64,000 bases of DNA from Squalus acanthias (lineage: Eukaryota), in the NCBI GenBank assembly GCA_030390025.1, contig CM059432.1, forward strand, positions 13,952,001 through 14,016,000, written 5' to 3'. The position numbers and the translations under genes are program-made. Shown in pieces: positions 1 to 51,819 of this stretch. Below the pieces are notes generated by a model. The model made no database searches. It had not been told where the DNA came from and saw only the letters and a list, made by a program, of their open reading frames with translations. The number at the start of each line of letters is the position of its first letter. The stretch's first letter is position 1.

Positions 1-316
1 GGTTTTTAAGCAAGTGCAGGGACAGGGAAAGGGAGGAGGGGAGGGAAGAACAAAAGGGAAGGTCTGTGATAGGATGGAAGACAGGAGAGATTAAGGGACA
101 AAAGGGATGATGGTGCGAGGCAAAAGGAGATGGTAATGGGACAAGTTAAGAAACAAAAGATGGCTCTAGATGAAGTGTAAATGGCACTGGCAGAATGAAA
201 GTTCTGACAAAAGGTCATCGTCCTGAAATATTAACTTTGTTTCTCTCTCCACAGATGCTGCCTGACCTGCTGAGTATTTCCAGTTTTTCAGCATCCGCAG
301 TATTTTGCTTTTGTAT
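1..316. mobile_element. Penelope-like element (PLE) terminal fragment with a decayed hammerhead motif at 200-236
   Basis: 200-316 closely matches the reverse complement of 51514-51651; core reads CTGACAA...GAAATATT (mutated). Confidence 0.65.
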
Positions 317-3520: not shown

Positions 3521-3691
3521 GGCGTGCTGCACACTGTTGCGGGCTACCTAATGTACACAGCAATTAGCTTTAAATACGTTTTTGACTACCATGCTGATGA
3601 TGTGTACTGGTGCACGGCTGATATTGGATGGATTACTGGACACTCATACGTTGCCTATGGGCCACTGGCAAACGGTGCGACAAGTGTTCTA
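3521..3691 (+). CDS. ACSS2: ACSS2-family coding exon, [12 protein letters not shown]...[14 protein letters not shown]...GATSVL
   Basis: ttttattctag| acceptor, CTA|gtgagt donor, 171 nt; [11 protein letters not shown] motif of acetyl-CoA synthetases. Confidence 0.95.
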
Positions 3692-4807
3692 GTGAGTAGA
3701 AAAAAAATGAGAAGTCGCACAACACCAGTGAGTAGAGGCAGTATTCTGTGCATCTATCGGAGTAGGGAAGATGTTCTAAACAGGTTTAGTTAATATATAG
3801 AAGGTAAAAGCCCCCGTCTTGTTGAGGTACTTTATTCCCAATGCGGGTCTCGCTGGGCACGGCACCATCCCTGCCTGAGGGATAATCTACTCCCGGGCCG
3901 CTAGTCGATGTCATGCTCACATTATTATTTCATTCATTTTGGGTCATAAACAGCGCTAAAGATCTCAGGGTTCAGAACTGAAGAGTTAGAATCATGGAAT
4001 CATAGAATCATACCGCACAGGAGGAGGCCATTCGGCCCATCGTGCCTGGGCCGGCTCCCTGAGCGAGCTACCAATTAGTCCCACTCCCCCTGCTCTTTCC
4101 CCACAGCCCTGCAAATTTATAGAATCATTACAGCACTGTTGACATCCCATATACTAGAATTGTGAGATAGTTCTCTTTGGCTTCAGCTTACACCAAGCGA
4201 GTGTAACTGATTTTACACAACTTTTTAAACATGGATTTGTCAGAATAGAGAAGAAAGAAAGACTTGAATTTATATAGCGCCTTTCACGACCACCGGATGT
4301 CCCAAAGCACTTTACAGCCAATGAAGTACTACGCTGTAAGGGGCATGAGAGGAGGCCTGGGACAGACTAACAGGAGCATAACAGTACATTGGTGCTATCT
4401 TTACCCAGTGCCACACCTGGCTGATTCAGAATTTATAGTCTGAGATATTTAAGGGGGGGCTTGGCAGTGTCTCATGGGTGCAAAGCGGGGGAGCCTGGGG
4501 CAGCAGAGGCCCAGACTTTGCATTTGGTGTTCGGAGGAGTTCCCCTGCTGTTCCTGGCCCCACAAAGGTTTAAAGGCAGCCCCCTCAGTCATCAATTAAA
4601 ATGCCTTTGGGGTCCTAATGACATCATGGGACCCTGATTTGCATAATCAGGCAGGCGCATCGGCCGCCTAAACAAAGGGTCCAATTAAAGTGGCGGCAGG
4701 CGGGAATGGAGCGGGGCGGTAAGATTTTGGAGGTGATTATAACTGTGGGCCTGTTGGGCGGGGTGGGTTAAATAGCCTCCTTGGGCTCTGGTGATTATTG
4801 CACAGTT

Positions 4808-7670: not shown

Positions 7671-7804
7671 TTTGAAGGTCTGCTGCTGTATCCACACGTG
7701 GGGAGGTTGTACGAAATGATTGAAAAGTATAAAGTGACCAAGCTTTACACAGCGCCCACGGTCATTAGAATGCTGATGAAGTTTGGAGAGGAACCCGTGA
7801 GAAA
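7671..7804 (+). CDS. ACSS2: ACSS2-family coding exon, FEGLLLYPHVGRLYEMIEKYKVTKLYTAPTVIRMLMKFGEEPVR(K)
   Basis: ctgttttag| acceptor, AA|gtaagg donor, 134 nt; matches the ACS FEG..YP..R.....KYKVT..YTAPT.IR.LMKFG segment; not in the ORF track, translated manually. Confidence 0.93.
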
Positions 7805-8493
7805 GTAAGGAACTTAGGAATGGGATATCCATTTGTATGTATAATACATAGAGCGGGGGAATGGGACTGACTGGATTGCTCTACAGAGAGCCGGCACGGA
7901 CTCGATGGGTCGAATGGCCTCCTTCTGAGTCGTTATGACTCTGACATTCATAGCACGAACAGTAAAACACAGTGTCCATGGGTTAGAAATGCCATTGAAC
8001 TAAGGTATGCCAAGGACCCATATCCTTAGCTACCGCAATTTTACAGTGTTCTGGAGCACCTTGTGGAATGATCCATCGAAGCAAAGTGCGCCTGTATTCT
8101 CTCCTTACTGCAAATCTTATGTGAATGTGAATCTTATCTTTCCAGTTCAACACTGGCTGAATGACTTGCTGTGCATTCCTGCAATTCTGTTTTTCATGCC
8201 CAATGCTTTCTTTCCTCTCTATTGCAAGTATTTCAAAAAACCCAAATTGCCGATGAAAGGTCACCTAAAACGTAAACCTGTCTTTTCTCTTTCAGGTGCA
8301 GATGGACCTCCTGCACCTGACCAGCGTTTTCATATTTTCATTTCAGTTTCCAGCAGAAAGGGTTTTTTTTTTCTTCTTCTTCTTAATCCAAATTTCTGCT
8401 ACATTGGAACTTATCGTTTTGGGTATTTTACGTGATTTAAAAATCCTCCTTTCCCTTCGTAAGGTGTTCTTTTTCACTTTTTGACTGCATCAG

Positions 8494-11347: not shown

Positions 11348-12090
11348 GGGCTGAATTTTGCCAGTGCTCAGGCTGCGGGTTTGGAGGCGGCTCCGCTGTC
11401 AAAATCACAAAGATTGACAGCGGGTCGGTATCCCGCTGTAAACCCGCTTTTTTGTCAGTTTCCCAAGTGTTGTGCCTGTCATCCCTGAACAGACCCGACA
11501 CCAAGCGACAGGTGAGCCAATTTAGATAGTTGAAAGCTTATTAAAAGGTAGTTAAGAACCATTTCCCCACGTACTTACCATTTTACCAGGTTTTCAACGA
11601 GGTTCCTGGAGAGCGGCTATCACGTCAGGTAAGTATGTCGGGTTCTCAATGACTGTGGATTGCTGTGAATAGGTGAAAGCTGCAAAAGTGGTATAAAACC
11701 TACCATTTCACAGCTGTTCACTTCCCAATCTTAGAAGCTGGAGCATTAATGATTTGGAACCCACTTTTGACCTTTTTGCACTTTTGAAGTGTTTGGCGTA
11801 ATCTCTCTATCCAGTGTCACCTCCTTGGAACAACCTATCTCAACATTGACAGATCGCTTCTGTCATCTCAACCTCACCTGCCATCTATTCCATCAGCATC
11901 GGTTCCCTTGAAAAAATCTCACCTTGGTCCTCAGAATCCCACCACGATCAGCCCCAACACCAGCATCACCAGGCACACCAGCAGCACCAACATCCACACC
12001 AACCTTCTCCGCAATCAACAGATGCTGCACTGGACACAGGGCACGGACGTCGCCCGCCACAGACCCACCGAGGTTGGAAAAATCCAGCCC
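11348..12090. mobile_element. PIF/Harbinger-derived non-autonomous element inserted in the Gypsy integrase region
   Basis: TIRs gggctgaatttt / aaaatccagccc; 11845-12045 matches 53777-53985 of the Harbinger derivative; flanks rejoin as integrase LANFLLKYGTT..TTGYTPAELL. Confidence 0.75.
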
Positions 12091-14254
12091 ATAGTAGTTC
12101 CGTACTTCAGCAAGAAATTTGCCAAACGTTGCTTCATGCTGAGTTCCGAACAACACTGCAACACTTGCGTTTTGAGAGCTTTTACTATTCTGACTGACCT
12201 TCCGGCTGCACTTTTGGCAAGCACTGGATTTGCTGACAAGTGATTCAAGATCACTGTCCCATCCAGGCCAGTAAACAAAGCTTCTTGCAATTGATTTCAT
12301 ACTGACGATCCCTGGTTGTTCAATATGAAGTTCGGCCAGAATTCTATCTCTCAGCAAAGTAGGTCCCACCACTCTGTTTCCCCACTTGATACAACCTTGC
12401 TCACAAGACAATTCAGTACGACGGTTATGGAATGGTTTCAATTCTGTGTCCATATACTGATCAGTCCATCCATTCAAGGTGTTTACATACACTCTTTTCA
12501 GTACTGAGTCCTTTTGAGTCTCATCTGCAATCTCAGTTGCATTCACGGGAAAGTCTTTGCCAATTGCACCTAACATCAAAATTGCACCTTCACTCCCAAC
12601 ACACGAGTCCTCATATGGCAACCTGGACAAGGCATCTGCGATTGCGTTTTGCTTTGAAGTGCGATATTCAATCGTGTAGTCATATTGTGACAACAACACT
12701 GCCCAATGTTGCATTCTTGATGCGGCCATTGCAGGGATGGCAGATTTGGGCCCCAATATTGCTAGGAGCGGTTTGTGATCGGTTATCAGGGTAAAGTTTC
12801 TGCCGATAAGGAACTGTTGGAATTTCTTGATTCCAAACACAATGGCGAGTGCTTCAATTTGTGCGTAGTTTCTTTTGCTCTTTGTGAGAGTTCACGATGC
12901 AAACGCGATTGGTTTCTCTTGGCCGTCATCCATTACGTAGCTTATGACAGCTCCCACACCGTAACTGGAAGCATCACACGCTAACTTAAGCTCACGCTCT
13001 GTGTCATAGTGCACAAGTAGAGCATCGCTAGAGAAACTTCTCTTACAAGTGTTGTAAGCTTCTTGTTGCACTTTCATCCACTTCCACTGGACATCCTTCT
13101 TGAGGAGCGCGTGCAATGGAGCTAACATGGTCGCTAACTCAGGTAAGAAATGTGTGTAGTACTGGACCATTCCAAGGAAAGATCTTAACTCAGACATGTT
13201 CTTTGGCTTTGGAGCATTGATGACAGCATCAACCTTTTCCTTCACTGGTTGCAAGCCATTTGTATCAACTTTCAGACCAAGGTACACAACCTCAGGCTGC
13301 ACAAAAGTACATTTGCTCCTTTTCAATTTGACATTGTGGGAATTCAACCTTTGAAGCACTAAATCTAACACTTCTAGATTTTCTTCCTCGCTGCTTGTTG
13401 CGATCAGCACATTGTCTTGATTGCATAAGCAATTTGGAACTCATTGCAAAATCTTATCCATATGGCAGCTTGGTGTATGAGTACAGCCCCTTGTGTGTGT
13501 TGATGATGAGATACTGTTGACTCTCTTTGTCAACATTCAGCTGAGCGTAAGCGTGCTACAGGTCAAGCTTGGAGAAAACCTTTGACCCAGAGAGTGCTGC
13601 ATACAAATCTTGTGATGTAGGTAACGGGTACTGCTCATCGTCAACTGCTTGGTTGATAGTAACTTTATAGTCACCACACAAGCATACCGTTTTGTCTGCT
13701 TTGGGCACTACCACGATCGGGGTAGTTCATTCACTTTTGTTAGTTTTTACTAGCACTCCGTTCTCTCTCAGTTTCTCTTGCTCTTCCTCCACCTGACTTT
13801 TCAACGCATAGGAGACCGGCCTTGCCTTACAAGAGACAGGCTTTGCATTGGACTTGATGCGGATATGCGCGTCATACCCAATGATGCCCTCATAACTGTC
13901 TGAGAGCGTGCTTTCGTACTTGTTCAGCATTGTGTCGAGTTGCTTCTTTGAAGCATCTACACTGAAGACGTTTTTCCAGTCTAGTTTTAACTTTCTCAAC
14001 CAGTCTTTGCCCATGACGGTTGGCCTGTTGTAGCTCGCTACAATAATAGGCAATTTTACTGACTGGCCATTGTGTTGAACTGTACATTCCATTTGTCCAC
14101 ATGACTCTAGGATTTCTCCAGAGTAGGTTTTTAACTCTATGGTACTCTTTGTAAGTGGTATTTGATTAAACTTGCTCTTATATGTGTCCTTACTCATGAT
14201 AGAGCAGTCTGCAGCTGTGTCGATACACATATCAATATATTGCTTGTTGATCAA
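12091..14254 (-). pseudogene. Gypsy pol remnant: aspartic protease, RT, RNase H and integrase zinc finger, with frameshifts and stops
   Basis: IDTAADCS (protease), LRSFLGMVQYY, LACDASSYGVGAV, ITDHKPL, NAIADALSRLP, LH..PGI..MKSIARSFVYWPG. Confidence 0.88.
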
Positions 14255-14833
14255 AAGTTTTGTATGGAAGTCTTTCTCACGACTGCTGGTGTTGCTGCTA
14301 GTGGCCTAGATACTGTAGATGTGAAGGAGTAAGCCATATAAACTATTCAGAAAAATACACCATTCTATGAAAGAATTCTGGCCTTATTAGAAACATGACA
14401 AACTGGGAAACCCAGACTATGGAAAAGCTGTGATAGAATTCCGGCTATAGAGATAAGATAGTTGTTGACACTGAATCAATAACCTTATTGAAACAGAAGA
14501 TTAAAGGCTCCTGACAGTCTGAATCTTTCGGAAGAAACAAAGGTTCACCCTGTACAAGGTGTTCTAATTTACACTTCGTAAAGAGGCACAAACAGAAGGC
14601 CTTAGTAAAAATGACATCAAATAAAATGCACCTGCTGTTACACCATTTTTTATGGTAAGCTTGGAACACCTAGAGGAGAGACACGAGTCTGTATTGCTAC
14701 CAGCTGAGGTGACTAAGAATTGCATAGATCACCCTGGTTAAGGTGTTCTAATTTACACTTCGTAAAGAGGCACAAACAGAAGGCCTTAGTAAAAATGACA
14801 TCAAATGAAACGCACCTGCTGTTACAGCGTTTT

Positions 14834-15454
14834 TTAGGCTTTATGACTGTAGACCTCAGCTGCACTAGTCACTTGTGTTGGACGGAGCTCCCTAGCATTC
14901 TTAGATGCTATCTCCATAGATAGGGTAATTTTGCATGCATTGTCAAACGTTAGGTTTGGAGTGTTCAGTAACTTGGACTGTGTGCGCTCATCCACCAGTC
15001 CACACTCAAACTTATCTCGCAACGCACGATCCAAAAGTGTGCCGAAGTTACAATGCAAAGACAGGTTCTTAAGAGCTACAATGTACTCACTGATGGTTTC
15101 ACTTTGTTTTTGGTTTCTGGTACCAAACTTATAGCTCTCTGCTATTTCTAACGGCTTTGGGTCGAAATGGTCCGCGAGTTTCTTGACAATGTCTTCAAAC
15201 AACGCATCCTTCGCTTTCCCTGACGCGAGTAGGTTTGTCAACATTCCAGAGACATCTGACCCGATCTCCGTTAGAAAAATTGCTTTCTTCTGTTCACGAA
15301 TTACTTTATTTTGAGCTTGAACATTCTCATCTGCACCTTCGGTCTCAATAATGGCCCTAAAAAATATCTCCATCCGCTCAATGTAAGAACTGAATGGTTC
15401 ATGAGCTCGGTCATACATGCCGAGGCTTCTGATGAATCCCGCAGGCGCGGCCAT
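14834..15454 (-). pseudogene. Gypsy gag N-terminal/capsid region
   Basis: 206-aa ORF with YIERMEIFF, RNQKQSETISEYIVALKNLSLHCNFG, LRDKFECGL..ERTQSKLL. Confidence 0.85.
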
Positions 15455-15690
15455 TATTGTCCCGATCCCGTCGAACAGTGACTCAGCACGCTACCTGTGT
15501 ACCTGTGAGAATCAACGCCGCTGTTGCTGTGTATACATACACGCGAAGGCGAAGCACAGACGATTGTGCATGAGCATTAATGGTAAAACATCGCAAAAAT
15601 TCAGTTTAGGTGTCACAAATTCACCTTAAACTTGTCCACTTGAAGGTTAAGCACTGTTCCCTTCCATGATCCCTAAAAATGGCTTTGGGA

Positions 15691-19711: not shown

Positions 19712-22700
19712 TACATAGAAACATAGAAACATAGAAGATAGGAGCAGGAGTAGGCCATTCGGCCCCTCGAGCCTGCTCCGCCATTCAATGAGATCATGGC
19801 TGATCATCCAAACTCAGTACCCTGTACCTGCTTTCTCCCCATATCCCTTGATACCTTTAGCTTTAAGAAATATATCTAACTCATTCTTGAATATATTTAA
19901 TGACTTGGCCTCAACTACCTTCTGTGGTAGAGAATTCCACAGGTTCACCACTCTCTGGGTGAAGAAATTCTTCCTCATTTCTGTCCTAAATGCCTTACCC
20001 CTTATCCTTAGATTATGACCCCTGGTTCTGGACTCTCCGACCATCGGGAACATTCTTCCTGCATCTAGTTTGTCCAGACCTGTCAGAATTTTATATGTTT
20101 CGATGAGATCCCCTCTCATTCTTCTATACTCCAGCGAGTATAAGCCCAATCGACCCAATCTCTCCTCATATGTCATTCCTGCCATCCCAGGTATCAGCCT
20201 TGTGAATCTTCGCTGAACTCCTTCCATGGCAAGAACATCCTTCCTCAGATAAGGCGACCAAAACTGCACACAGTACTCAAGGTGTGGTCTCACCAAGGCC
20301 CTGTACAACTGCAGCAGGACATCCCTGTTCCTATACTCAAACCCTTTCGCTATGAAGGCCAACATACCATTTGCCTTCTTCACCGCCTGCTGCACCTGCA
20401 TGCTTACCTTCAGCGACTGGTGCACAAGGACACCCAGGTCTCGTTGCACTTCCCCTTCTCCCAATCTATTGCCATTCAGATAATAGTCTGCCTTTCTGTT
20501 TTTGACATACAAAGTGGATAACCTCGCATTTATCCACATTATACTGCATCTGCCACGCTTCTGCCCACTCACCCAACCTGTCCAAATCATCCTGGAGTTT
20601 CTCGGTATCCTCCTCGCAGCACACACTCCCACCCAGCTTTGTGTCATCTGCAAACTTGGAGATATTACATTTAGTTCCCTTATCTAGATCATTAATGTAT
20701 ATTGTGAATAGCTGGGGTCCAAGGACTGATCCCTGCGGTACCCCACTAGTCACTGCTTGCCACTCGGAAAAAGACCCATTAATTCCTACTCTCTGTTTTC
20801 TGTCCGCCAACCAGTTCTCTATCCAAGTCAATACCTTGCCCCCAATCCCATGTGCCTTAACTTTACACGCTAATCTCTTATGCGGGACCTTATCGAAAGC
20901 CTTTTGAAAGTCCAAATACACCACATCCACTGGTTCTCCCTTATCTATTTTCCCCGTTACATCCTCAAAAAATTCCAGTAGATTAGTCAAGCACGATTTA
21001 CCTTTTGTAAATCCATGTTGACTTTGTCCGATCCTGTCACTGTTTTTCAAGTGCTCAGCTATTACATCCTTTATAATGGACTCTAGCATTTTCCCCACTA
21101 CCGATGTCAGGCTTACCGGTCTGTAATTCCCCGCTTTCTCTCTACCACCCTTTTTGAATAGTGGGGTAACATTAGCTACCCTCCAATCCATGGGTACAGT
21201 TCCAGATTCCATCGAATGTTGGAAGATGATCAGCAATGCATCTACTATTTCTAGGGCCACTTCCTTAAGTACCCTAGGATGTAGATTATCAGGCCCTGGG
21301 GATTTATCGGCCTTCAATCCCGTCAATTTCCCTAACACCATTTCCCTGCAAATACTGATTTCTTTCAGTTCCTCCCTTTCATCAGACCGTATGTTCTCCA
21401 ACATCTCTGGGAGGTTATTTGTGTCCTCCTTTGTGAAGACAGAACCAAAATATGCATTTAATTGGTTTGCCATTTCTTTGTTCCCCATTATAACTTCCCC
21501 CGCTTCTGACTGCAAGGGACCTACACTTGATTTCACTAATCTTTTCCTCTTCACATATCTATAAACGCTCTTACAGTCAGTTTTTATGTTCCCAGCAAGC
21601 TTACTTTCATATTCAATTTTCCCCTTCTTAATTAATCCCTTTGTCCTCCTTTGTTGAATCCTAAACTGCTCCCAATCCTCAGGGTTACCGCTTTTTCTGG
21701 CCAATTTATATGCCCTCTCCTTGGATCTTATGCTATCCCTAATTTCCCTTGTTAGCCATGGTTGAGTCACCCTTTTTGTTTTATTCTTATGCCACACTGG
21801 GATGAACAAATTCTATAATTCATCCATGCAGTCTTTGAATGTTTGCCATTGCCTATCCACCGTAAACCCTTTGAGTGACTTTCCCCAATCAATCCTACCC
21901 AATTCGCGCCTCATACCATCGTAGTTTCCTTTATTTAAATTCAGGACCCTAGTCTCTGATTCAACTACTTCACTCTCCATCCTAATGAAGAATTCTATCA
22001 TATTATGATCACTCTGACCCAAGGGGCCTCGTACAACAAGATTGCTAATTAATCCTTTCTCGTTACATAATACCCAGTCTAAGATGGCCTGATCTCTGGT
22101 TGGTTCCTCGACATATTGTTCCAGAAAACCATCCCATAAACATTCTAGGAATTCCTCCTCCACAGTATTTTTACTAGTTTGGTTAGCCCAATCTATATGT
22201 AAATTAAAGTCACCCATGATGACTGCTGTGCCCTTACTGCATGCTTCTCTAATTTCCCTTTTAATGTCGTCCCCAACCTCCGTATTACTGTTTGGAGGTC
22301 TATATACCACTCCCACTAACGTTTTCTGCCCCTTGTTATTTCTCAGTTCTACCCATACAGATTCCGCATCATCAGAGCTAATATCCTTCCTTTCAATTGT
22401 GTTAATCCCCTCTTTAACCAGCAATGCTACCCCACCTCCCTTTCTTTTTTGCCTATCTTTCCTAAATATTGAATAACCCTGGATGTTGAGTTCCCAGCCT
22501 TGGCCACCCTGGAGCCATGTTTCTGTAATCCCAATCAAATTGTATTAATTTACCTCTATTTGCACAGCTAATTCATCCATCTTGTTCCGAATGCTCCTTG
22601 CATTAAGACACAAAGCCTTCAGGCTTGTTTTTTTAACGCTCTCAGACCTATATGAATTATTATTTACTGTGACCATGTTGGATTTAAACCGTTGAGTTCT

Positions 22701-22806
22701 TTGCCTTCTACTTTTGTTTTTCTCCTTCCTGTCTTTTGCTTTTATCCTTGTTTCCCTTTCCTCTGTCTCCCTGCTCAGGTTCCCAACCCCCTGCCACTTT
22801 AGTGTC
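19712..22806 (-). mobile_element. CR1 LINE with nearly complete ORF2 (APE endonuclease plus RT), broken by a few frameshifts
   Basis: CLNARSIRNK, GITETW, VYRPPN, GDFN, SDH (endonuclease); RT motifs in ORFs 20466-21809 and 19814-20653; (catagaaa)n tail. Confidence 0.95.
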
Positions 22807-23168
22807 ACAGATGAGGGAGTGAGCCAGGCAATCGGCTGCCTCTGCTTTTGCCGCTCTGAAACTGGAGGCGTATGAGATCGGGGAATAATTCCCCCTCCAA
22901 TATGTACGTCAATTCATCTGCCTGGCTTTTGAACAGTGCCTCCTACAGTAGCTAGGCCAAGATCAGGCAGTCACCGCATGGGTAATAATAGGTACAAACT
23001 CACAATTCACCGTTCCTGCCACTGCATGTTGATGTTGCCGTGTGACATGCCCCATCACTGTTAAAACAGCACTTCCGACGAGGTCACTTAACTGCTACAC
23101 CAGTAAACCTCTATATAGATAATCAAAGTCCACAAATCATCACAATGAGGCGTTTCTTAAGGCTCCTA

Positions 23169-34576: not shown

Positions 34577-35691
34577 GTACCTTTACCTAGATGGATGGGT
34601 CTTCGATTGCACTGGAAAGGCAAGAATGAGGGAAACCAGTAGCAGAAACATTCCAACATAAGGCTAGAAACTTTAGCTTTATCCCCCGTGTTCTTTACTA
34701 CAAGGGAGGCTTTGATAGGGGTGGGCCTGCTGGTGTCTCAGGGGAGGCAAGCTCATGATCTGGGTATAGTTTCTTTGTCAGAACACAGTACTGGTGGGGC
34801 GTAAGGGCGTAAGATCTGCACCCATATTGTTGATTCATTTACTCTAATGCAGGACTTATGCACCCATGGTGTCTTTCCAGAATTTCTGTTTTCATTTTAG
34901 ACCCACATGTCTAGGCTTTCCCTGCGTTTTTCCTAATGTCCCCATTTTTTTTGCCTATTCCCCTGGATTGCCACGTAATCTCCTGGGAGAGACGAAAAAC
35001 CAGATAAAAACCCTGGCCAATTAGGGGGGGGGAAAAAAATCTGGAAAATTCCTCTCCGATCCCATTAGGCAATCAAAACTAGTCCAGGAGATCACATGTA
35101 TATCATTTATATTATAGGATACCTACCTCTTGTACAATGTGGTCGCCGCTTCAGCCAGAAACAGGTCTAGCTCCTTCTTGAAGGAACCCAGCGAACCAGC
35201 ATTCACCGCATGAGCCGCCAACCTATTTCACAGGTCACTATTCTCTTGGAAAAGAAGAATGGTCGAACATCCAACCTAGTTCTGCCCTTGCATTTCTTGT
35301 AAGCGTGACCCCTGATCCTCCCTGACTTTTTTGATCTGCCTACATGCATAACACTACAGTTTTCCAAGCTAAACATCATTTGCCAAACACGGGCCCCTTC
35401 TTCTAACGCATGAAGATCTGCTTAAAGTAGTTGAGCACCGTCTACATTCCTAACATGCGCACTTATCTTGGCATTGTCCGCAAACTTGCGGATCATTCCC
35501 CCAACACCTACGTCTAAATTATTAATAAAAATAGTAAATGGTAGAGGCCCTACCACCAATCCCTGGGGGACACCACTGGTAACCGGTCTCCAAGCAGATC
35601 CAAATCTGTTGACTACAGTTTTCTGCCTATGGGGATTCAGCCAATTCTCAATCCCCTGCAGCAGATTACCATTACTTCCACAAGATTCTAT

Positions 35692-36080
35692 CGCTCTACT
35701 CGGAGCTCCGGCACGGCAAGAGAGCCCCAGGTGGGCAGAGGAAACGCTTCAAGGACACCCTCAAAGCCTCCTTGAAAAAGTGCAACATCCCCACCGACAC
35801 CTGGGAATCCCTGGCCCAAGACCACACAAAGTGGAGGAGAAGCATCCGGGAAGGCGCCGAACACCTCGAGTCTCTTCGCTGGGAGCAAGCGGAAGCCAAG
35901 CGCAGGCAGCGCAAGGAGCGCACGTCAACCCAAGCACCCCACCCAGCCGCCCCTTCAACCACCGTCTGCCCCACCTGTGACAGAGACTGTAGGTCCCGCA
36001 TTGGACTCATCAGTCACCTGAGAACTCATTTTTAATGTGGAAGCAAGTCATCCTTGGTTCCGAGGGACTGCCTAAGAAGA
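35692..36080 (+). mobile_element. RTE-clade LINE 3' end
   Basis: LYSELRHGKRAPGGQRKRFKDTLKASLKKCNI..WESLAQD..KWRRSI, then C2H2-like CPTCDRDCRSRIGLISHLRTH. Confidence 0.85.
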
Positions 36081-36111
36081 GGATTTATATAGTGGCTTAT
36101 CATGTTGAAAA

Positions 36112-36520
36112 GTGTCGGCCGTGGCTCAGTGGGCAGCACCCTCGCCTCTGAGTCAGAAGATTGTGGGTTCAAGTTCCACTCCAGAGACTTGAGCCCACAA
36201 TCTAGGCTGACACTCCAGTGCAGTGCTGAGGGAGTGCTGCACTGTCAGAGGTGCCGTCTTTCAGATGAGAAGTTAAACCGAGGCCCCGTCTGTCCTCACA
36301 GGTGGATGTAAACCATCCCATGGCACTATTTCGAAGAAGAGCAGGGGAGTTATCCCCAGTGTCCTGGCCAATATTTATCCCTCAATCAACATCACTGAAA
36401 CAGATTATCTGGTCATTGTCACATTGCTGTTTGTGGGAGCTTGCTGTGTGCAAATTGGCTGCCCTGTTTCCTACAGTAACTACACATCAAAAGTCCGGTC
36501 ATCGTGAAAGGCGCTATATA
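36112..36520 (+). mobile_element. Deu-domain SINE (SacSINE1-like)
   Basis: Family copy with a small 3' deletion. Confidence 0.85.
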
Positions 36521-37531
36521 TTTCTGAAACAGATTGAAGCATTTCACACAATGAATTACTTTTAGTGCAGTGCCCGTGGTAGCTTTTCTTCTTACTCTTT
36601 TCCCCTTACCTTTCCCCTCCTGTCCTGCAGGTTCTGGCTCATGTTGAAGTACAATAGCCTTTCTTCATACCCGAGCCTGGACATTGAGTGCTGGTGGCCT
36701 ATTTGACCATGGTGGCATCACAGCCGAGCCCAATTCTGCCCGTACCTGACAGCCGCACGCATACACTGTCCACCAAGAGCCACTGGATAGCGAACAGGAA
36801 CGGGAGCTGTGGCTGATATGTTTCTCTTCCATAGTCCAGGGGAGCTGGAGGCCTCTCCAGCTGTAACATTCAGCACATACTAGGGAGGGGGTGGGGGGGG
36901 GGGGAGATACTAAACCATTGAGGGGCTTTCATTTTTAATTTCACTCCCTTTCCTTACTATTTTTTTTTTCTTGCCCAAAACCCACATGTTCTCAGATGTT
37001 TCCCTGCTGGATCCTGAATCGCAGTGCCAGCACTCGTACCTTGTGCTTTTACTGGGAGTGCTGAGCGCAGCACATTTGTGCACTGACACTACCATTTACT
37101 GATGTTTAATGTCATCAACAAATCAAGGAGCTGCTGTCATTGCCAGGAGCAGCGGGATAGAAGCGAGGCAGGAGTGGGGATAAATTGCAGCAGGCTCACA
37201 ATGCAGTGCATTACCTGCCAGAGAGATAGCAGTGACAGATGGGCAGGAAAAACAGAATAGCTTGGGGAATTTTATGTGAGCGGGAATTAAAATTCATAAA
37301 ACAAAGACAGAAGAATCCAGAAATATACAGCAGTTGAAGAAGACATTTCGGGATGTTCGGATGAACTTTAGTCTTCCAAATGCTAACTGAAATATTTCCA
37401 ACATTTTCTGTTATTATTTTAGATTTCTATTTTACTAATTAGGTGATTATTGATAACTTTCAGGGCAGCAATGGATCTGTTACATGCTCTAACACTTAGG
37501 TAGCTCCTAAAGTCTTGAGATGGAGATAGTT

Positions 37532-40500
37532 CATAGAATCATAGAATGGTTACAGCACAGAAGGAGGCCATTCGGCCCGTCGAGCCCGTGCTGGCTCTGT
37601 GCAAGAAGCACTTCAGCTAGTCCCACTCCCCCGCCCTTTCCTTTTTTTCCTTCAGGTACTTATCCAATTCCCTTTTGAAAGCCATGATTAAATCTGCCTC
37701 CACCACCCTTTCAGGCAGTGCATTCCAGATCCTAAACACTCGCTGCGTAAAAAAGTATTTCCTCATGTCGCCTTTGGTTCTTCTGCCAGTCACCTTAAAT
37801 CTGTGTCCTCTGGTTCTCGACCCTTCCGCCAATGGCAACAGTTTCTCTCTATCTACTCTGTCTAGACCCCTCATGATTTTGAACACCTCTAGCAAATCTC
37901 TTCTCAACCTTCTCTGCTCTAAGGACAACAACCCCAGCTTCTCCAGTCTATCCACGTAACTGAAGTCCCTCATCCCTGGAATCATTCTTGTAAATCTTTT
38001 CTGCACCCTCTCTAAGGCCTTCACATCCTTCCTAAAGTGCGGTGCCCAGAATTGGACACAATACTCCAGTTGAGGCTGAGCCAGCGTTTTATAAAGGTTC
38101 ATCATAACTTCCTTGCTTTTGTACTCTATGCCTCTATTTATGAAGCCCAGGATCCCGTATGCTTTCTTAACCGCTTTCTCAACCTGCCCTGCCACCTTCA
38201 ACGATTTGTGCACATATACCCCCAGGTCTCTCATTTCATGCATCCCCTTTAGAATTGTACCCTTCAGTTTATATTGCCTCTCCTCGTTCTTCTTACCAAA
38301 ATGTATCACTTTGCATTTTTCTGCATTAAATTTCATCTGCCACATGTCCACCCATTCCACCAGCCTGTCTATGTCCTCTTGAAGTCTATCACTATCCTCC
38401 TCACTGTTCACTATACTTAGAAGTTTTTAGTCATCTGCAGATTTTGAAATTGTGCCTTGTACTCCCAAGTCCAAGTCATTAATATATATCAGAAAAGCAG
38501 TGGTCCTAGAACCAACCCCTGGGGAACACCACTGTGTACCTTCCTCCAGTTCAATAAACAACCGCTCACCACTACTCTCTGTTTCCTGTCACTTAGCCAA
38601 TTTTGTATCCATGCTGCCACTGTCCCCTTTATTCCATGGGCTTCAACTTTGCTGGCAAGCCTATTATGTGGCACTTTATCAAATGCCTTTTGGAACTCCA
38701 TGAACTACATCAACTGCATTGCCCTCATCAATCCTCTCTGTTACCTTATCAAAAAACTCAATCAAGTTAGTTAATCAAACACTATTTGCCTTTAACAAAT
38801 CCATGCTGGCTGTCTTTAATTAATTCACACTTGTCCAAGTGACTGTTAATTTTGTCCCGGTTTATCGTTTCTAAAAGCTTCCCCACTACCGAGGTTAAAC
38901 TGACTGGCCTGTAGAACCTGTGTTTATCCTTACACCCTTTTTGAACAAGGGTGTAACATTTGCAATTCGCCAGTCCTCTGGCACCACTCGCATATCTAAG
39001 GAGGATTGGAAGATTATGGCCAGTACCTCTGCAATTTCCACCTTTACTTCCCTCAGCATCCTAGGATGCATCCCATCCAGTCCTGGTGACTTTTTTTTTT
39101 TTGTTCATGGGATGTGGGCGTCGCCAGCAAGGCCAGCATTTATTGCCCATCCATAAGAAGGTGGTGGTAAGCCACCTTCTTGAGCTGCTGCAGTCCCTGT
39201 GGTGATACTTCTTTAAGCGGTTTGGTGCAACTGGCCATTTCAGAGGGCAGTTAAGATTCAACCACATTGCTGTGGGTCTGGAGTCACATATAGGCCAGAC
39301 TGGGTAAGGACAGCAGATTTCCCTCCCTAAAGGTCATTAGTGAACCAGATGGGTTTTTACAACAATCCAGTAGTTTTATGGTCACCATTACTGATACTAG
39401 CTTTTTATTCCAAATGTATTCAATTAACTGAATTTAAATTCCCCAGCTGCCATGGTGGGATTTGAACCCATGTCTCCAGATCATTAATCCAGGCCTACCG
39501 GATTACTAGTGCCAGTAACATAACCACTATGCTGCCGTTCCCATAACTTATCTACTTTAAGTACAGCCAGCCTTTCTAGTACCTCCTCTTTATCAATTTT
39601 TAGCCCATCCAGTATCTCAACTACCTCCTCTTTCACTATGACTTTGGCAGCATCTTCTTCCTTGGTAAAGACAGATGCAAAGTATTCATTTAGTACCTCA
39701 GCCATGCCCTCTGCCTCCATGCGCAGGTCTCCTTTTTTGTCCCTAATCGGCCCCACCCCTCCTCTTACTACCCGTTTACTATTTATATGCCTATAGAAGA
39801 CTTTTGAATTCCCTTTTATGTTAGAACATAACATAAGAACATAAGAAATAGGAGCAGGAGTAGGCTATTCGGCCCTTCGAGCCTGCTCCGCCATTCAATA
39901 AGATCATGGCTGATCTTCTACCTCATCTCCACTTTCCTGCACTATCCCCATATCCCTTGATTCCCTTAATATTCAAAAATCTATTGATCTCTGTCTTGAA
40001 TATACTCAACGACTGAGCCTTCGCAGCCCTCTGGGGCAGAGAATTCCAAAGATTCACCACCCTCTGAGTGAAGACATTTCTCCTCATCTCAGTCCTAAAT
40101 GGCTGACCCCTTATTCTGAGACTGTGACCCCTGGTTCTAGACTCCTCAGCCAGGGGAAACATCCTCCCTGCATCTACCCTGTCAAGCCCTGTAAGAATTT
40201 TGTATGTTTCAATGAGATCACCTCTCACTCTTCTAAACTCTAGAGAATATAAGCCTAGTCTACTCAATCTCTCCTCATAGGACAATCCCCCCATCCCAGG
40301 AACCAGTCTGGTGAACCTTCATTGCACTCCCTCTATGGCAAGTATATCCTTCCTTAGGTAAGGAGACCAAAACTGTACACAATACTCCAGGTGTGGTCTC
40401 ACCAGGACCCTATATAATTGCAGTAAGACATCTTTACTCCTATACTCTAATCCTCTTGTAATAAAGGCCAACGTACCATTTGCTTTCCTAATTGCTTGCT

Positions 40501-41620
40501 GTACCTGCATGTTAACTTTCAGTTATTCGTGTACACGGACACCCAGGTCCCTCTGAAGACCAACATTTCCCAATCTCTCACCATTTAAAAAATACTCTGC
40601 TTTTCTATTTTTCCTACCAAAGTGGATAATTTCACATTTCTCCACATTATATTCCATTTGCCATGTTCTTGCCCACTCACTTAGCCTGTCTATATCCCCT
40701 TGAAGCCTCCTTGCATCCTCCTCACAACTTGCATTCCCACCCAGCTTTGTATCATCAGCAAACTTGGATATATTACATTTGGTCATCTCATTCAAATCAT
40801 TGATGTAGATCGTGAATAGCTGAGTCCCAAGCACTGATCCTTGCGGTACCCCACTAGTTACAGCCTGCCAACCCGAAAATGACCCGTTAGCTGCCAATCT
40901 ATTCTCATACTCTCTCTTTGCCCCTCTTATTCTCTTTTCACTTCCCCTCTGAACTTTCTATATTCAGCCTGGTTCTCACTTGTATTCTCAACCTGACATC
41001 TGTCATACGCCCCCTTTTTCTGCTTCATCTTACTCTCTATCTCATTCGTCATCCAGGGAGCTCTGACTTTGGTTGCCCTACCTTTCCCCCTCGTGGGAAT
41101 GTACCTCGACTGTACCTGAACCATCTCCTCTTTAAAGGTAGCCCATTGTTCGATTAGAGTTTTGCCTGCCAATCTTTGATTCCAATTTACTCGAGCCAGA
41201 TCCATTATCCACTGAAATTGGCCTTCCTCCAATTAAGTATTTTTACTCTAGATTGCTCCCTGTCCTTTTCCATAGCTAATCTGAACTTTATGATACTATG
41301 ATCACTGTTCCTTAAATGATCCCCTACTGACACTTGCTCCACTTGATCCACCTCATTCCCCAGAACCAGATCCAGCAATGCCTCCTTCCTCATTGGGCCT
41401 GAAACATACTGATCAAGAAAGTTATCCTGAAAACACTTCAGAATTTCTTCCCCTGCTCTGCCCTTTACACTATTACTAGCCCAGTCCATATTAGGATAGT
41501 TGAAGTCTCCCATTATTACTACTCTATAGTTCTTGCACCTCTCTGTAATTTCCCTGCAAATTTGCTCCTCTATATCCTTCCCACTAGTTGGTGGCCTATA
41601 GAATATACTTAGCAGTGTAA
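37532..41620 (-). mobile_element. Long CR1 (endonuclease to 3' tail) split by a SINE (39091-39542) and another CR1 (39825-40885)
   Basis: Endonuclease ORF 41205-41648, linker ORFs 40927-41232 and 39484-39834, RT ORF 37617-38411; inner CR1 flanked by gttag repeats. Confidence 0.85.
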
Positions 41621-42049
41621 TAGCACAGTTGTCTGCTTCGTGTGACAAACTGGTGATATGTGAAAGATCTGCTGCTTAAACTCAACTGCATACTGAAGGA
41701 AACAAAGAAAGACTTGCATTTATATAGCGCCTTTCATGACATCAGGACATCCCAAAGCACTTTACAGCCAATTAAGTACTTTTGAAGTGTAGTCACTGTT
41801 GTAATGTAGGAAACATGGCAGCCAATTTGCGCACAGCAAGCTCCCACAAACAGCAATGTGATAATGACCAGATAATCTGCTTTTAGCGATGTTGGTTGAA
41901 GGATAAATATTGACCAGGTCACCGGGGAGAACTCTCTTGCTCTTCTTTGAATAGTGGTCATGATGCGGAGATGCCGGTGTTGGACTGGGGTAGACAAAAA
42001 TGAGAAGTCGCACAACACCAGGTTATAGTCCAACAGTTTTATTTGAAAT

Positions 42050-42084
42050 CACGAGCTTTCGGAGCTCTGCTCCTTCGTCAGGTA
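42050..42084 (-). ncRNA. Minimal type I hammerhead ribozyme motif (mirror copy)
   Basis: Reverse complement reads tac-CTGACGA-a-GGAGC-aga-GCTCC-GAAA-gctc-gtg. Confidence 0.68.
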
Positions 42085-42607
42085 CAGTGAGGGAATACAA
42101 ATCGATTACAAAGTATATATAGACAGAGAACAATGTGTCTGCAGAGATACAATCCGTCAGGGAGGCATTACATCAAAGACACAGCAGAGTACAGCTAAGA
42201 CAATGAGGTGGGTCACAGGGGGTCCAACGTGTCAAATGCTGCAGTCTGCAGTTAAGCTTTTAACTTTTTTTTAAAACTGGAAATCATACCTGTGAACCAG
42301 ACAACGATGTCGAGTCACGTCCTGTAGCGTGACATGAAACCGGGATCTCGGTTTCATGTCACGCTACAGAACGTGACTCGACATCGTTGTCTGGTTTACA
42401 GGTGTGATTTCCAGTTTTTAAAAAAAAGTTAAAAGCTTAACTGCAGACTGCAGCATTTGACACGTTGGACCCCCTGTGACCCACCTCATTGTCTTAGCTG
42501 TACTCTGCTGTGTCTTTGATGTAATGCCTCCCTGACGGATTGTATCTCTGCAGACACATTGTTCTCTGTCTATATATACTTTGTAATCGATTTGTATTCC
42601 CTCACTG

Positions 42608-42642
42608 TACCTGACGAAGGAGCAGAGCTCCGAAAGCTCGTA
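42608..42642 (+). ncRNA. Minimal type I hammerhead ribozyme motif
   Basis: tac-CTGACGA-a-GGAGC-aga-GCTCC-GAAA-gctc-gta: both core boxes, stem II, 3-bp stem I. Confidence 0.7.
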
Positions 42643-42938
42643 ATTTCAAATAAAACTGTTGGACTATAACCTGGTGTTGTGCGACTTCTCTTCTTTGAAT
42701 AGGGCCATGGGATCCTTTATGTCCACCTGAGAGAGCAGACAGGGCCTTGTTTTAATGTATCATCCAAAAGATGGCACCTCCAACATTGCAGCACTCCCTC
42801 AGTACTGCACTGGAGGGTCAGCCTAGATGTTGTGGCTCCAGCCTCTGGAGGGAGGGGTTGAACCATCAACCTTCTGATTCAGAGGCGAGAGTGCTACCAA
42901 CTAAGCCACGGTTATCCACTTTGTGGCAAATATTAGTA

Positions 42939-43602
42939 ATAGAAACATAGAAACATAGAAGATAGGTGCAGGAGTAGGCCATTCGGCCCCTCGAGCCTGC
43001 TCCACCATTCGATGAGATCATGGCTGATCATCTAAACTCAGTACCCTGTACCTGCCTTCTCCCCATATCCCTTGATACCTTTAGCTTTAAGAAATATATC
43101 TAACTCATCCTTGAATATATTTAATGACTTCGCCTCAACTCACTGCTTGCCACTCGGAAAAAGACCCATTAATTCCTACTCTCTGCTTTCTGTCCGCCAA
43201 CCAGTTCTCTATCCAAGTCAATACCTTGCCCCCAATCCCATGTGCCTTAACTTTACACACTAATCTCTTATGCGGGACCTTATCGAAAGCCTTTTGAAAG
43301 TCCAAATCCACCACATCTACTGGTTCTCCCTTATCTATTTTCCCAGTTACATCCTCAAAAAATTTCAGTAGATTAGTCAAGCACGATTTACCTTTTGTAA
43401 ATCCATGTTGACTTTGTCCGATCCTGTCACTGTTTTTCAAATGCTCAGCTATTACATCCTTTATAATGGACTCTAGCATTTTCCCCACTACCGATGACAG
43501 GTCTGTAATTCCCCGCTTTCTCTCTACCACCCTTTTTGAATAGTGGGGTAAAACATTAGCTACTCTCCAATCCATGGGTACAGTTCCAGATTCCATCGAA
43601 TG
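42939..43602 (-). mobile_element. Internally deleted CR1 of the same young subfamily as 19712-22806
   Basis: 3' tail joined directly to the RT segment (ORF 43135-43635); near-identical to parts of 19712-21220. Confidence 0.88.
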
Positions 43603-43868
43603 CGACAAGGATGGCTGTTGTGAGGAATGAAACATCAGACCGATGCAATGGTGGCACTTTTATGACCTTGGCAATTTTCTCATTGTAAGAAAATTGTATT
43701 GCATCTGATGTGGGAGTGCTTGATGCTAGAACTCGTAAAAAAAAATGGAAAAGTGTTCACTCTTTAACACAGATGCCCTTCACCTTGACAAAGAACACAA
43801 CAAAATCACAGGAAAATAATGCAGCTACACTTACTAAAATACTTTATTATCTCCTTTTAAATTTGTAG

Positions 43869-43943
43869 TACGACAAAAGATTGGACCGATAGCCACGCCT
43901 GACTTCATACAAAATGCACCCGGGCTCCCAAAAACCCGTTCAG
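43869..43943 (+). CDS. ACSS2: ACSS2-family coding exon, (V)[24 protein letters not shown](G)
   Basis: atttgtag| acceptor, TCAG|gtaaat donor, 75 nt; first half of the A10 motif PKTRSGK. Confidence 0.95.
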
Positions 43944-44063
43944 GTAAATCACGCGTTACTATGAAGTATCGAGACCGCAGTAAGGGAAACTTATATCAGT
44001 TGTAAAAAGCGACCGACTAACAATGGAACCAATTTTAACCAAGTATTTCTTCCTTCCTCAAAG

Positions 44064-44191
44064 GTAAAATAATGAGGCGCATCCTGAGGCACATTGCTTG
44101 CAATGAGAAAGATTTGGGGGATATTTCCACCCTCATAGACCCAACCGTGGTGGAAGTCCTGTTCAGCCAGCGATGTCAAGCAGCTGCTTGA
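44064..44191 (+). CDS. ACSS2: ACSS2-family terminal coding exon, (G)[41 protein letters not shown]
   Basis: cttcctcaaag| acceptor; catalytic/acetylated Lys of RSGKIMRR; DLGD.ST..DP.V motif; TGA at 44189-44191. Confidence 0.95.
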
Positions 44192-44232
44192 AACAATGCA
44201 GTGAACAGCCTGCAGATCCAATACTCAGTTAC

Positions 44233-44238
44233 AATAAA
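44233..44238 (+). promoter_or_regulatory. Candidate polyadenylation signal AATAAA (second candidate at 44322-44327)
   Basis: AATAAA 42 nt after the stop codon, just before repeat-derived sequence resumes. Confidence 0.45.
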
Positions 44239-44329
44239 AAGCAGAGAGCCTTGAGCAGACTGGTCCAAATAGGGGCCAGTAATTGCACTGCACAGATATT
44301 CTAGCTAGCAACGTATTGCTAAATAAAAA

Positions 44330-46460
44330 ATCATTCCAAATCCTTAATAACCTGTCTCGTTAAGAAAGTTCTTTGTATAAACCCCTTTACAACATCTAAT
44401 TGTTTCTTAAATGATTCCAGGGTTTTATGCCTTCACTACTTTTAATCCACATGTTGATCTTTGTGTGAAGAATAATTTCCTGCTATCAGTCTCAACATTA
44501 CCTTTGACCAGTTTGAATTTATGTCCCCTCTTGCTATTCGCAGAATTTAAAGTAGTATTCTGCGTTAACTTTTTCTATACCATTAATAATCTTCACAACC
44601 TTTCGAAGTTAATCTCTCAGATGCCTCCTTGCCAGGCTGAAAGTTTCTGCAGCCTTTCCTCAGAACCTCAGACCTGTGACACTGGGGATCAGCCTTTATG
44701 CTCTTCTGCAAAGAGAACAAAGTATTGCAAAGAATTTACAGCACAGAAACAGGCCATTCGGCCCAACAGGTCCATGCCAGCGTTTATGCTCCACACGAGC
44801 CTCCTCCCACCCTTCTTCATATCCTTCTATTCCTTTCTCCCTCATGTGTTTATCTACCTTCCCCCTAAATGCATCTGTGCTATTCGCCTCAACTACTCCT
44901 TGTGGTAGTGAGTTTCACATTCTCATCACTCTCTGGGTAAAGAAGTTTCTCCTGAATTCCCTATTGGATTAATTAGTGATTGTCTTATATTTATGGTCCC
45001 TGGTTCTGGATTCGCCTGCAAGTGGAAACACCTTCTCTACGTCAACCCTATTAAACCCTTTCATAATCTTAAAGACCTCTATTAGGTCACCCCCTCAGAC
45101 TTCTCTTTTCTAGAGAAAAAAGTCCAAGCCTGTTCAATCTTTCCTGATAGGTATAACCTCTCAGTTCTAGTATCATTCTAGTAAATCATATTTGAACCTT
45201 CTCCAGTGCCACTATATCCTTTTTATAATATGGAGACCAGAACTGTTCACAGTACTCCAAGTGTGGTCCAACCAAGGTTTTATTCAAGTTTAACACAACT
45301 TCTCTCCTTTTTAATTCTATCCCTCTAGGATTGACCCAGTGCTTTGTTTGCTTTTTTCATGGTCTTATTAACCTGCGTCGCTACTTTCAGTGATATGTGT
45401 ACCTGTACCCCCAGATCCCTCTGTTCCTCTTATTTAGACTCTTATTTTCCAAGGAGTATGTGACCACCTTCTCTGTACTTCCTCCAGTGCTTGAATGTCT
45501 CCTCGAGCCAAATGGCCTCCTTCTGTGCTGTAAGTTTCTATGATTCTATGATTTGTGTAGTCTGAGCTTGTAGGTTTTGGGAATATATTTATCCTGGATG
45601 CTCAGCATTACAACTTTTTATATAGAATTACATATAAGTTTAAAAAGCTGAAACATGTCATTCGGCCCAACCAGTCTAACTGTGTTGGTGTTTAGCCTCT
45701 GCGTGAGCAGTAGCCTTATTCCCAGTTGCTCACCCTATTCCTATATCCCTTTATTTCCTTTCCTTTAACGGCCTATCTAACCTATTCTTAAATGTTGACA
45801 TGGCCTCTGTTTCAATCACTAGCTCTGGTAATGCATTCCGCAGCCTCACAGCCCTCTGTGTAAAAAGGTTTCTCATTCGCTCTGTCATCAACCTCTTACA
45901 CTTCATCTTATATCTAGGTCCCCTCATTCGAGACCCCTCAATCACTGGAAACAGTCTGTTTCTATCTACTCTGTCCCATCTCTTCAAATATTAAATACCT
46001 GTTTCAAATCACCCCATAATCTCTTTTTTTTTAACAAAAGCAGCTCCAATTTCTCAAGCCTTTCTTCATATTTGTATTTCCTCATACCAGGCAGCATCCT
46101 AGTGAATCTGCACCATATCCTCCCTATTACTTTAATATTCTTCCGATAGTGTGGAGCTCAAAACTGCAACCAGTACTCAATCTGTGGTCGTGTGAACATT
46201 TTGTATAGATTCACCATGACATCTCAACGTTTATATTCTATACTGTTTGCCATAAAACCCAATATCCCATTAGCTTTTTTTTTAAATGGCCTTATCCATT
46301 TGAGGAGCTACTTATAAGGTTTTGTGAACCTGAACCCCCCAAATCCCTCTGCTCCTTCACATTAGCCAGCTTTCCCCCATTCAAAGTATAATTACTACTT
46401 TTATTTTTCTTACCTAAATGGACTGCCTCACATTTACTGACACTGAATTCCATCTGCCAC
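44330..46460 (-). mobile_element. Cluster of older, degenerate CR1 3' fragments
   Basis: Repeated FTQR.V..WN.LP and TRGH-type segments on the minus strand. Confidence 0.7.
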
Positions 46461-51513: not shown

Positions 51514-51651
51514 ATACAAAAAGAAAATACTGCAGATGCTAGAAATCTGAAATAAAAACAGAAAATGCTGGAGATACTCAGCAGGTCAGGCAGCATCTGT
51601 GAAGAGAGAAACAGAGTTAACGTTTCAGGTCGATGACCTTTCGTCAGAACT
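51514..51651 (-). mobile_element. ~136-bp PLE-derived unit with an 11-bp TSD
   Basis: Flanked by cttaaaaccta at 51503-51513 and 51650-51660. Confidence 0.78.
51615..51651 (-). ncRNA. Minimal type I hammerhead ribozyme motif, intact core
   Basis: Reverse complement: AGTT-CTGACGA-a-AGGTC-atc-GACCT-GAAA-CG-TT-AACT (stem I AGTT/AACT, stem II AGGTC/GACCT, palindromic AACGTT). Confidence 0.75.
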
Positions 51652-51819
51652 TAAAACCTACCTCTTTGACCAAGATTTTGTTCATCTGTCCTAATATCTC
51701 CCGTGAAGCACCTTGGGACGTTTTACTATGCCAAGGGCGCTATATAAATGCAAGTTGTTGTTGTTGTTGTATGTGTTTGGTCGGCCCCACTGTAGTTTAT
51801 ATGTTACTGCTGGCATTAA

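Follow-up and report, generated by a model that had tools for sequence, protein, structure and literature searches.

The closest described systems are Penelope-like elements (PLEs) of animals. In the rotifer Adineta vaga (PMC3846280), Pen2/Pen2a form units with inverted pseudo-LTRs (pLTRs), for which self-priming was proposed. For endonuclease-positive PLEs the typical scheme, as given in PMC8557442, combines a 30–40-bp tail with an inverted 5'-truncated copy. Minimal hammerhead ribozymes (min-HHRs) of metazoan PLEs occur as opposite-strand pairs 100–700 bp apart (PMC4209133). Work on the Poseidon element PAc of Anolis carolinensis (PMC11167929) describes a Penelope protein that cuts and extends both strands and is predicted to be dimeric, and defines the PLE tail as the stretch between two start sites of reverse transcription.

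The window analysed here, a 64,000-nt stretch of DNA from the shark Squalus acanthias, contains a near-perfect palindrome of 689 bases (42002–42690), detected by self-comparison, with arms of 344 nt (left) and 345 nt (right). Its centre is the GATC at 42344–42347, bordered by a G/T mismatch at 42343/42348. The arms match each other with an E-value of 7e-173 in self-BLAST and differ by five substitutions, all of them transitions, and one 1-nt indel in an A/T run. An earlier note had described just such an inverted repeat centred on GATC, with a handful of mismatches and one homopolymer indel, and both points are borne out by the self-BLAST and the arm alignment. According to self-comparison and public contigs, the left arm (42002–42345, minus strand) is a 5'-truncated pLTR, antisense to the host gene, and the right arm (42346–42690, plus strand) is the same pLTR in sense orientation; both point outward. 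The junction between them (42336–42355) is formed by a 7-bp inverted repeat with a 6-nt core and one G/T mismatch and is a candidate snap-back site. Five of the six arm differences lie at most 69 nt from the centre (42247–42445) and the outer 275 nt hold a single one; in a simulation done post hoc, this clustering had a P-value of 0.013 on mean distance. The innermost difference could be a relic loop, and the remaining inner ones may stem from repair events near the centre or from gene conversion that homogenised the outer arms.

The palindrome is very probably an insertion unit of the known Penelope-like kind, although the assignment to Penelope and to a clade rests on anatomy and not on protein, since no linked reverse transcriptase/GIY-YIG gene was seen. 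Two inverted pLTR copies that face each other head to head across a palindromic junction, a tail at one end, a target duplication, a hammerhead in the pLTR and a multicopy family are all present, and the Penelope origin claimed earlier is supported by the pLTR anatomy, the tail, the duplication, the hammerhead and the family ends. By analogy with published cases, we regard it as likely to be an ordinary mirror-image stump of a Penelope-like insertion, an architecture already in print. The description of Pen2/Pen2a (PMC3846280) likewise includes head-to-head inverted pLTRs, a palindromic junction, a one-end tail and a target duplication, and there too TATATATA is followed by TCACT, as in the shark arm. 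The dimensions differ: arms of 344 nt here versus 181–218 bp in Adineta, a tail of 42–46 nt versus 31, and a duplication of 15 bp versus 8–10; unlike Pen2/Pen2a as described there, the shark insert has neither an ORF remnant nor a direct pLTR. As a class it adds little, as opposite-strand hammerhead pairs and inverted pLTRs have already been published. It is a clean and apparently young example, in which both family end points and the symmetric centre are visible in one copy.

Other classes were considered and set aside. An autonomous Penelope-like element would carry an ORF for reverse transcriptase and GIY-YIG, and no long frame appears in the six-frame translation of the arm. Its longest stop-free stretch is about 60 codons, which supports the non-coding nature proposed in the earlier note. 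Animal non-LTR retrozymes, as described in a preprint (bioRxiv 10.64898/2026.07.22.740005), are also non-coding and PLE-derived and also carry a type I hammerhead, but they are head-to-tail tandems with at least two hammerheads on one strand, whereas the shark insert has one per strand and no tandem units. In a Foldback/MITE DNA transposon symmetric terminal inverted repeats would abut the duplication at both ends; here the left end has an unpaired extension of 42–46 nt and the right end overlaps the duplication. The fold-back shape itself, claimed before, is supported by the self-comparison of the arms.

The insert is flanked by a 15-bp target-site duplication, a direct repeat with copies at 41940–41954 and 42688–42702 that are 100% identical, as reported earlier; the first 3 nt of the right copy overlap the end of the arm, and the duplication could reach about 22 bp if the next, CATG-bearing bases belong to the target and not to the element. 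Between the left copy and the left arm lies an unpaired 3' extension of the pLTR (41956–42001, minus strand), 42–46 nt long, recognized as a PLE tail by self-comparison and from PMC3846280 and PMC11167929. It stands at the left end only, with no partner on the right in the self-comparison, so the anatomy given in the earlier note was right in its inverted repeat and had overlooked this extension. The start of the tail is ambiguous between 41956 and 41960; other family copies start at 41959/41960. The right arm finishes at the tail-less family end, with a 3-nt microhomology to the target.

The target was a SINE (41689–42915, minus strand; about 470 nt without the insert), delimited by alignment of copies in the window. 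Excision of the insert in silico restores a single SINE that aligns across the junction with six other window copies. Its tRNA-like head, near 42880–42910, was identified by eye from box A/B-like motifs, which we take to be the mark of such a head; it is a feature of Deu-SINE (SacSINE1). With this head and with the SINE in register on both sides, the proposed insertion inside a SINE is confirmed. The ratio of observed to expected CpG is 0.72 in the insert and 0.24 in the host SINE; the insert therefore looks young, its arm having kept its CpGs. Outside the insert the SINE has three CATG sites (41735, 41814 and 42706), all of them at tail-end junctions: 42706 is the junction of this copy, and the other two are junctions in other copies, seen in contig joints.

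Each strand of the palindrome carries one minimal hammerhead, with cores at 42611 (plus) and 42081 (minus), 530 bp apart. A strict descriptor gave three matches over the whole 64 kb, namely this pair and one in a different repeat family, and none in 40 order-1 Markov sequences, so a hammerhead in each arm, as claimed in the earlier note, holds. The plus-strand motif (42608–42642, type I, predicted cut after C42639) consists of a helix I of 3 bp, one additional A, a helix II of 5 bp with G-C as its first pair and a 3-nt loop, GAAA, and a palindromic AGCU that stands in for helix III. On the minus strand, 42045–42091 holds an Inr-like motif and a minimal type I hammerhead whose core starts at 42081, with a predicted cut after 42053. 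The core boxes, the extra base, G10.1-C11.1, the palindromic 15.1-16.1 and the NUH triplet are all in place. The only arm difference within the hammerhead region changes U-G to U-A in helix I. This copy has C at position 17 where many members of the family have U (site 42053), which CpG decay could also explain; the NUH rule permits either letter. A search of Rfam at E ≤ 1 over 39000–46000 found no hammerhead among four sub-threshold matches, which is expected because the motif lacks helix III; those matches (two with a Bacteroides sRNA, one with a miRNA precursor and one with a tmRNA fragment) were rejected as hairpin or chance hits.

In PMC4209133 the min-HHRs of metazoan PLEs have the same core, with the extra base before stem II and G10.1-C11.1, and the same palindromic 15.2-16.2, also without helix III. 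The helices are shorter here: 5 bp in helix II versus 7–8 bp in the Schistosoma consensus, and in helix I only three contiguous pairs versus the 4–5 bp expected for the PLE type. Some PLE variants have a helix I of 2 bp, according to the same source. In PAc, too, the hammerhead lies a short way upstream of a tail that has an end point on either side; the PAc ORF begins at stem II, where the shark copy has ACG and a frame that closes after 9 codons (PMC11167929).

From the centre outward the arm reads as about 225 nt of non-coding sequence, the TATATATA octamer, TCACT after another 23 nt, the immediately adjoining hammerhead, AATAAA and the end. The octamer is palindromic and TATA-like; it lies at 42114–42121 in the left arm and at 42571–42578 in the right, where with the Inr-like TCACT (42602–42606), 23 nt away, it makes up a plus-strand element at 42571–42606. 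The AATAAA at 42649–42654 (plus) is followed by a G/T-rich stretch, has the sense orientation in the host intron and is a putative poly(A) signal. Motifs resembling a splice donor (42400–42406) and an acceptor (42543–42553) also occur on the plus strand within the arm; Penelope elements can keep introns.

To place this copy in its family, the left half (41300–42345) was compared with contigs from 4 of 20 public runs. In organism A 0.60–0.63 of the words sampled were present, and it is possibly a species other than that of the window. The arm family is clearly high-copy and interspersed: summed contig depth, which is not copy number, was 200,050–1,029,943 over the inner arm in run X1 versus 6.7 in a unique flank bin, and a second stump at 3701–3726 of the window also counts toward an interspersed multicopy family. 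The tail boundaries at 41959/41960 and 42003 recur in other copies, and both are ends of the present one. Entry into the element at 41959/41960 was seen in 6 of the 15 joints listed (15 of 776), and run X9 had 275 loose ends before 42003. Four of those six joints fall within 3 nt of CATG, although the joint sides are 23–32 nt at 90% likeness and were flagged unreliable. The coincidence with CATG hints at microhomology at the priming site, a suggestion drawn from sequence to which a reported initiation of reverse transcription at a site without homology to the target (PMC11167929) is an ill fit. In organism E the hammerhead and tail are also present and the inner arm is absent (depth 0–24 at 90% likeness). 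Exact-pattern scans of viral, metagenome and genome contigs gave no match. None of the papers retrieved describes the shark family, as judged by title or abstract; supplementary alignments of fish min-HHRs may include it.

We considered whether the palindrome might be a fold-back artefact of sequencing or assembly, given that the locus was not seen spanned by any independent record; among the listed contig pieces none spans the left-half stretch and none shows the empty allele or the junction at the centre. Five substitutions and an indel separate the arms, a 15-bp duplication flanks them, the one-sided tail sits at family end points and the SINE is in register on both sides, all of which makes an artefact exceedingly improbable.

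How such a structure arose is less certain, and we consider it fairly probable that a truncated pLTR was inserted by target-primed reverse transcription and then copied by snap-back. An autonomous Penelope protein, acting in trans, would have made staggered cuts in the SINE, about 15 nt apart. The plus-strand end would have served as primer for cDNA that began at the tail-end start site, probably aided by the shared CATG. Synthesis would have halted after about 390 nt, and the cDNA end would have folded back at the 7-bp inverted repeat to serve as its own template. The copy might then have been resolved at the tail-less site, with the 3-nt microhomology used for joining. Snap-back predicts a very short spacer at the centre, and the spacer is at most 6 nt. 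Of the 12 listed arm sites that vary in the family (from the best 40 of 76 variant rows), 11 have the same letter in both arms, which implies one template or identical donors. The exception, site 42287, has a private letter in the left arm, 75,162 of 75,208 units of family depth having the other letter. The insertion is likely a dead end.

Some observations speak against snap-back. The right arm ends exactly at the second start site of the family, which priming from both ends would explain more directly. In that scheme both cut strands would prime cDNA on two identical pLTR templates, one starting at the tail end and the other at the tail-less site. The resulting pair of cDNAs would anneal at the short central palindrome. 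The anole protein suits such a course with its cutting and extension on both strands, its predicted dimer and its two starts bounding the tail (PMC11167929); both ends of the insert are the two family end points, and the 26-nt stump at 3701 starts near the tail-less site. However, cDNAs made independently would in most cases be expected to end at unequal lengths, with an asymmetric spacer between them, unlike the 6 nt or less seen here, the arms share their letters at 11 of 12 listed variable sites, and no Penelope literature on twin priming was found, as judged by title or abstract. The near-symmetric centre and shared haplotype thus favour fold-back, and two-ended priming seems to us unlikely. 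A genome-wide set of such copies could separate these two routes, which are left open in the cited work.

Depth also fails to fall toward the centre, reaching 360,290 in the last bin. This too speaks against fold-back, and a unit of fixed length would give such depth as well. The whole hairpin might accordingly belong to a non-autonomous palindromic family with a fixed centre, copied from an earlier palindromic donor and spreading as a unit. Contigs running over the ends, counted without splitting by end, number 58 in X1 and 55 in X9, even though X9 is uncovered at the centre end. From this comes a weak hint, in favour of such a family, that few contigs extend beyond the centre. The clustering of arm differences at the centre is in line with it too, and one-step fold-back accounts only for the innermost of them. 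The left-arm letter at 42287, on the other hand, is nearly absent from the family, so a widespread master was not the source of that mismatch; the tail on one side and the end microhomologies look made at insertion; and no strand-change joint at the centre occurs among the 15 joints listed (of 776; left half, 4 of 20 runs). We therefore consider a fixed-centre family improbable. More doubtful still is an extended version, in which the hairpin would spread as a fixed-point unit and its two outward TATA/Inr promoters would yield identical short hammerhead RNAs free of the hairpin, one antisense to the host gene, that form an active dimer in trans.

Under the snap-back origin that we prefer, as for the insert in general, the hammerheads appear to be passengers. 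The predicted RNA fold of the palindrome has −661.8 kcal/mol (z −69.8; shuffle mean −184.6, with none of 20 shuffles as stable) and contains two C-A mismatches. Stem II has a pairing probability of 0.0 in the predicted fold of the full transcript and of 0.07–0.20 in single-arm contexts, so that sequestration of the ribozyme by the hairpin, proposed in the earlier note, is supported. In the host pre-mRNA the left arm would be made first and the right arm would then pair with it, burying the sense hammerhead and the AATAAA in a hairpin of about 340 bp, without a dimer partner. With one hammerhead per strand there is no partner in cis, and a modelled partial dimer, at −18.3 kcal/mol versus a cofold minimum of −24.7, is thermodynamically unconvincing. 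A single min-HHR motif of this kind showed no cleavage according to PMC4209133, and the PAc hammerhead depends on protein, while insertion in vitro can proceed without it (PMC11167929). Both motifs are predicted from these models to be inactive in host gene RNA. The idea that the unit presents a ribozyme whichever strand is transcribed consequently finds no support: there is one min-HHR per strand, without helix III, the single motif did not cleave in the cited work, and stem II is predicted to be unpaired in the full transcript.

Processing of the hairpin by ADAR or Dicer is plausible. Extrusion of a cruciform in the DNA is plausible as well, although the centre of 70% G+C and the mismatch three bases out should disfavour it. 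Should long intronic hairpins of this kind turn out to be frequent in sharks, they would supply much dsRNA, like inverted Alu pairs in primates. It is nonetheless very improbable that the host has exapted this hairpin as a regulator of the ACSS2-like gene that works by editing, by small RNAs or by hiding an intronic poly(A) signal. The fold is very stable and has its two C-A mismatches, it lies 1.2 kb from the acceptor, and a sense AATAAA falls within the paired arm; the insert, however, looks young by its CpG content against that of the SINE, and at 90% likeness organism E lacks its inner arm.

The insert lies in an intron (34577–43868, plus strand; 9,292 nt) of an acetyl-CoA synthetase gene, located by protein matches and best matched by ACSS2-like proteins, 1,166 nt upstream of the acceptor. 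The intron position proposed earlier stands; the paralogue, given there as ACSS2, is probably a different one, as the exons are closer to shark ACSS2-like proteins. Exon 7671–7805 is 98–100% identical to these and 64% to two teleost cytoplasmic acetyl-CoA synthetases, and by sequence the host gene is more likely an ACSS2-like paralogue.

The second stump of the same element (3691–3736 with its duplication, minus strand) is 26 nt long (3701–3726), and its 10-bp duplication includes the splice donor of an exon. As a result the ACSS2-like exon has two donors that share the intronic GTGAGTAG and lie in frame at a distance of 36 nt. Use of the downstream donor is predicted to add 12 stop-free residues; none of 98 homologues with both flanking motifs, all from other species, has extra residues at this point.

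Elsewhere in the window, a different hammerhead-bearing repeat is present in short copies at 51568–51652 (minus) and 199–283 (plus), which are 92% alike. The core at 51647 passes the min-HHR descriptor, and this copy seems to have inserted into a SINE, where an 11-bp duplication accompanies it; in the copy at 199 the hammerhead core is changed. Long stop-free frames of up to about 330 codons at 11896–15490 and 21816–22913, both intronic and on the minus strand, are probably remnants of retroelements.
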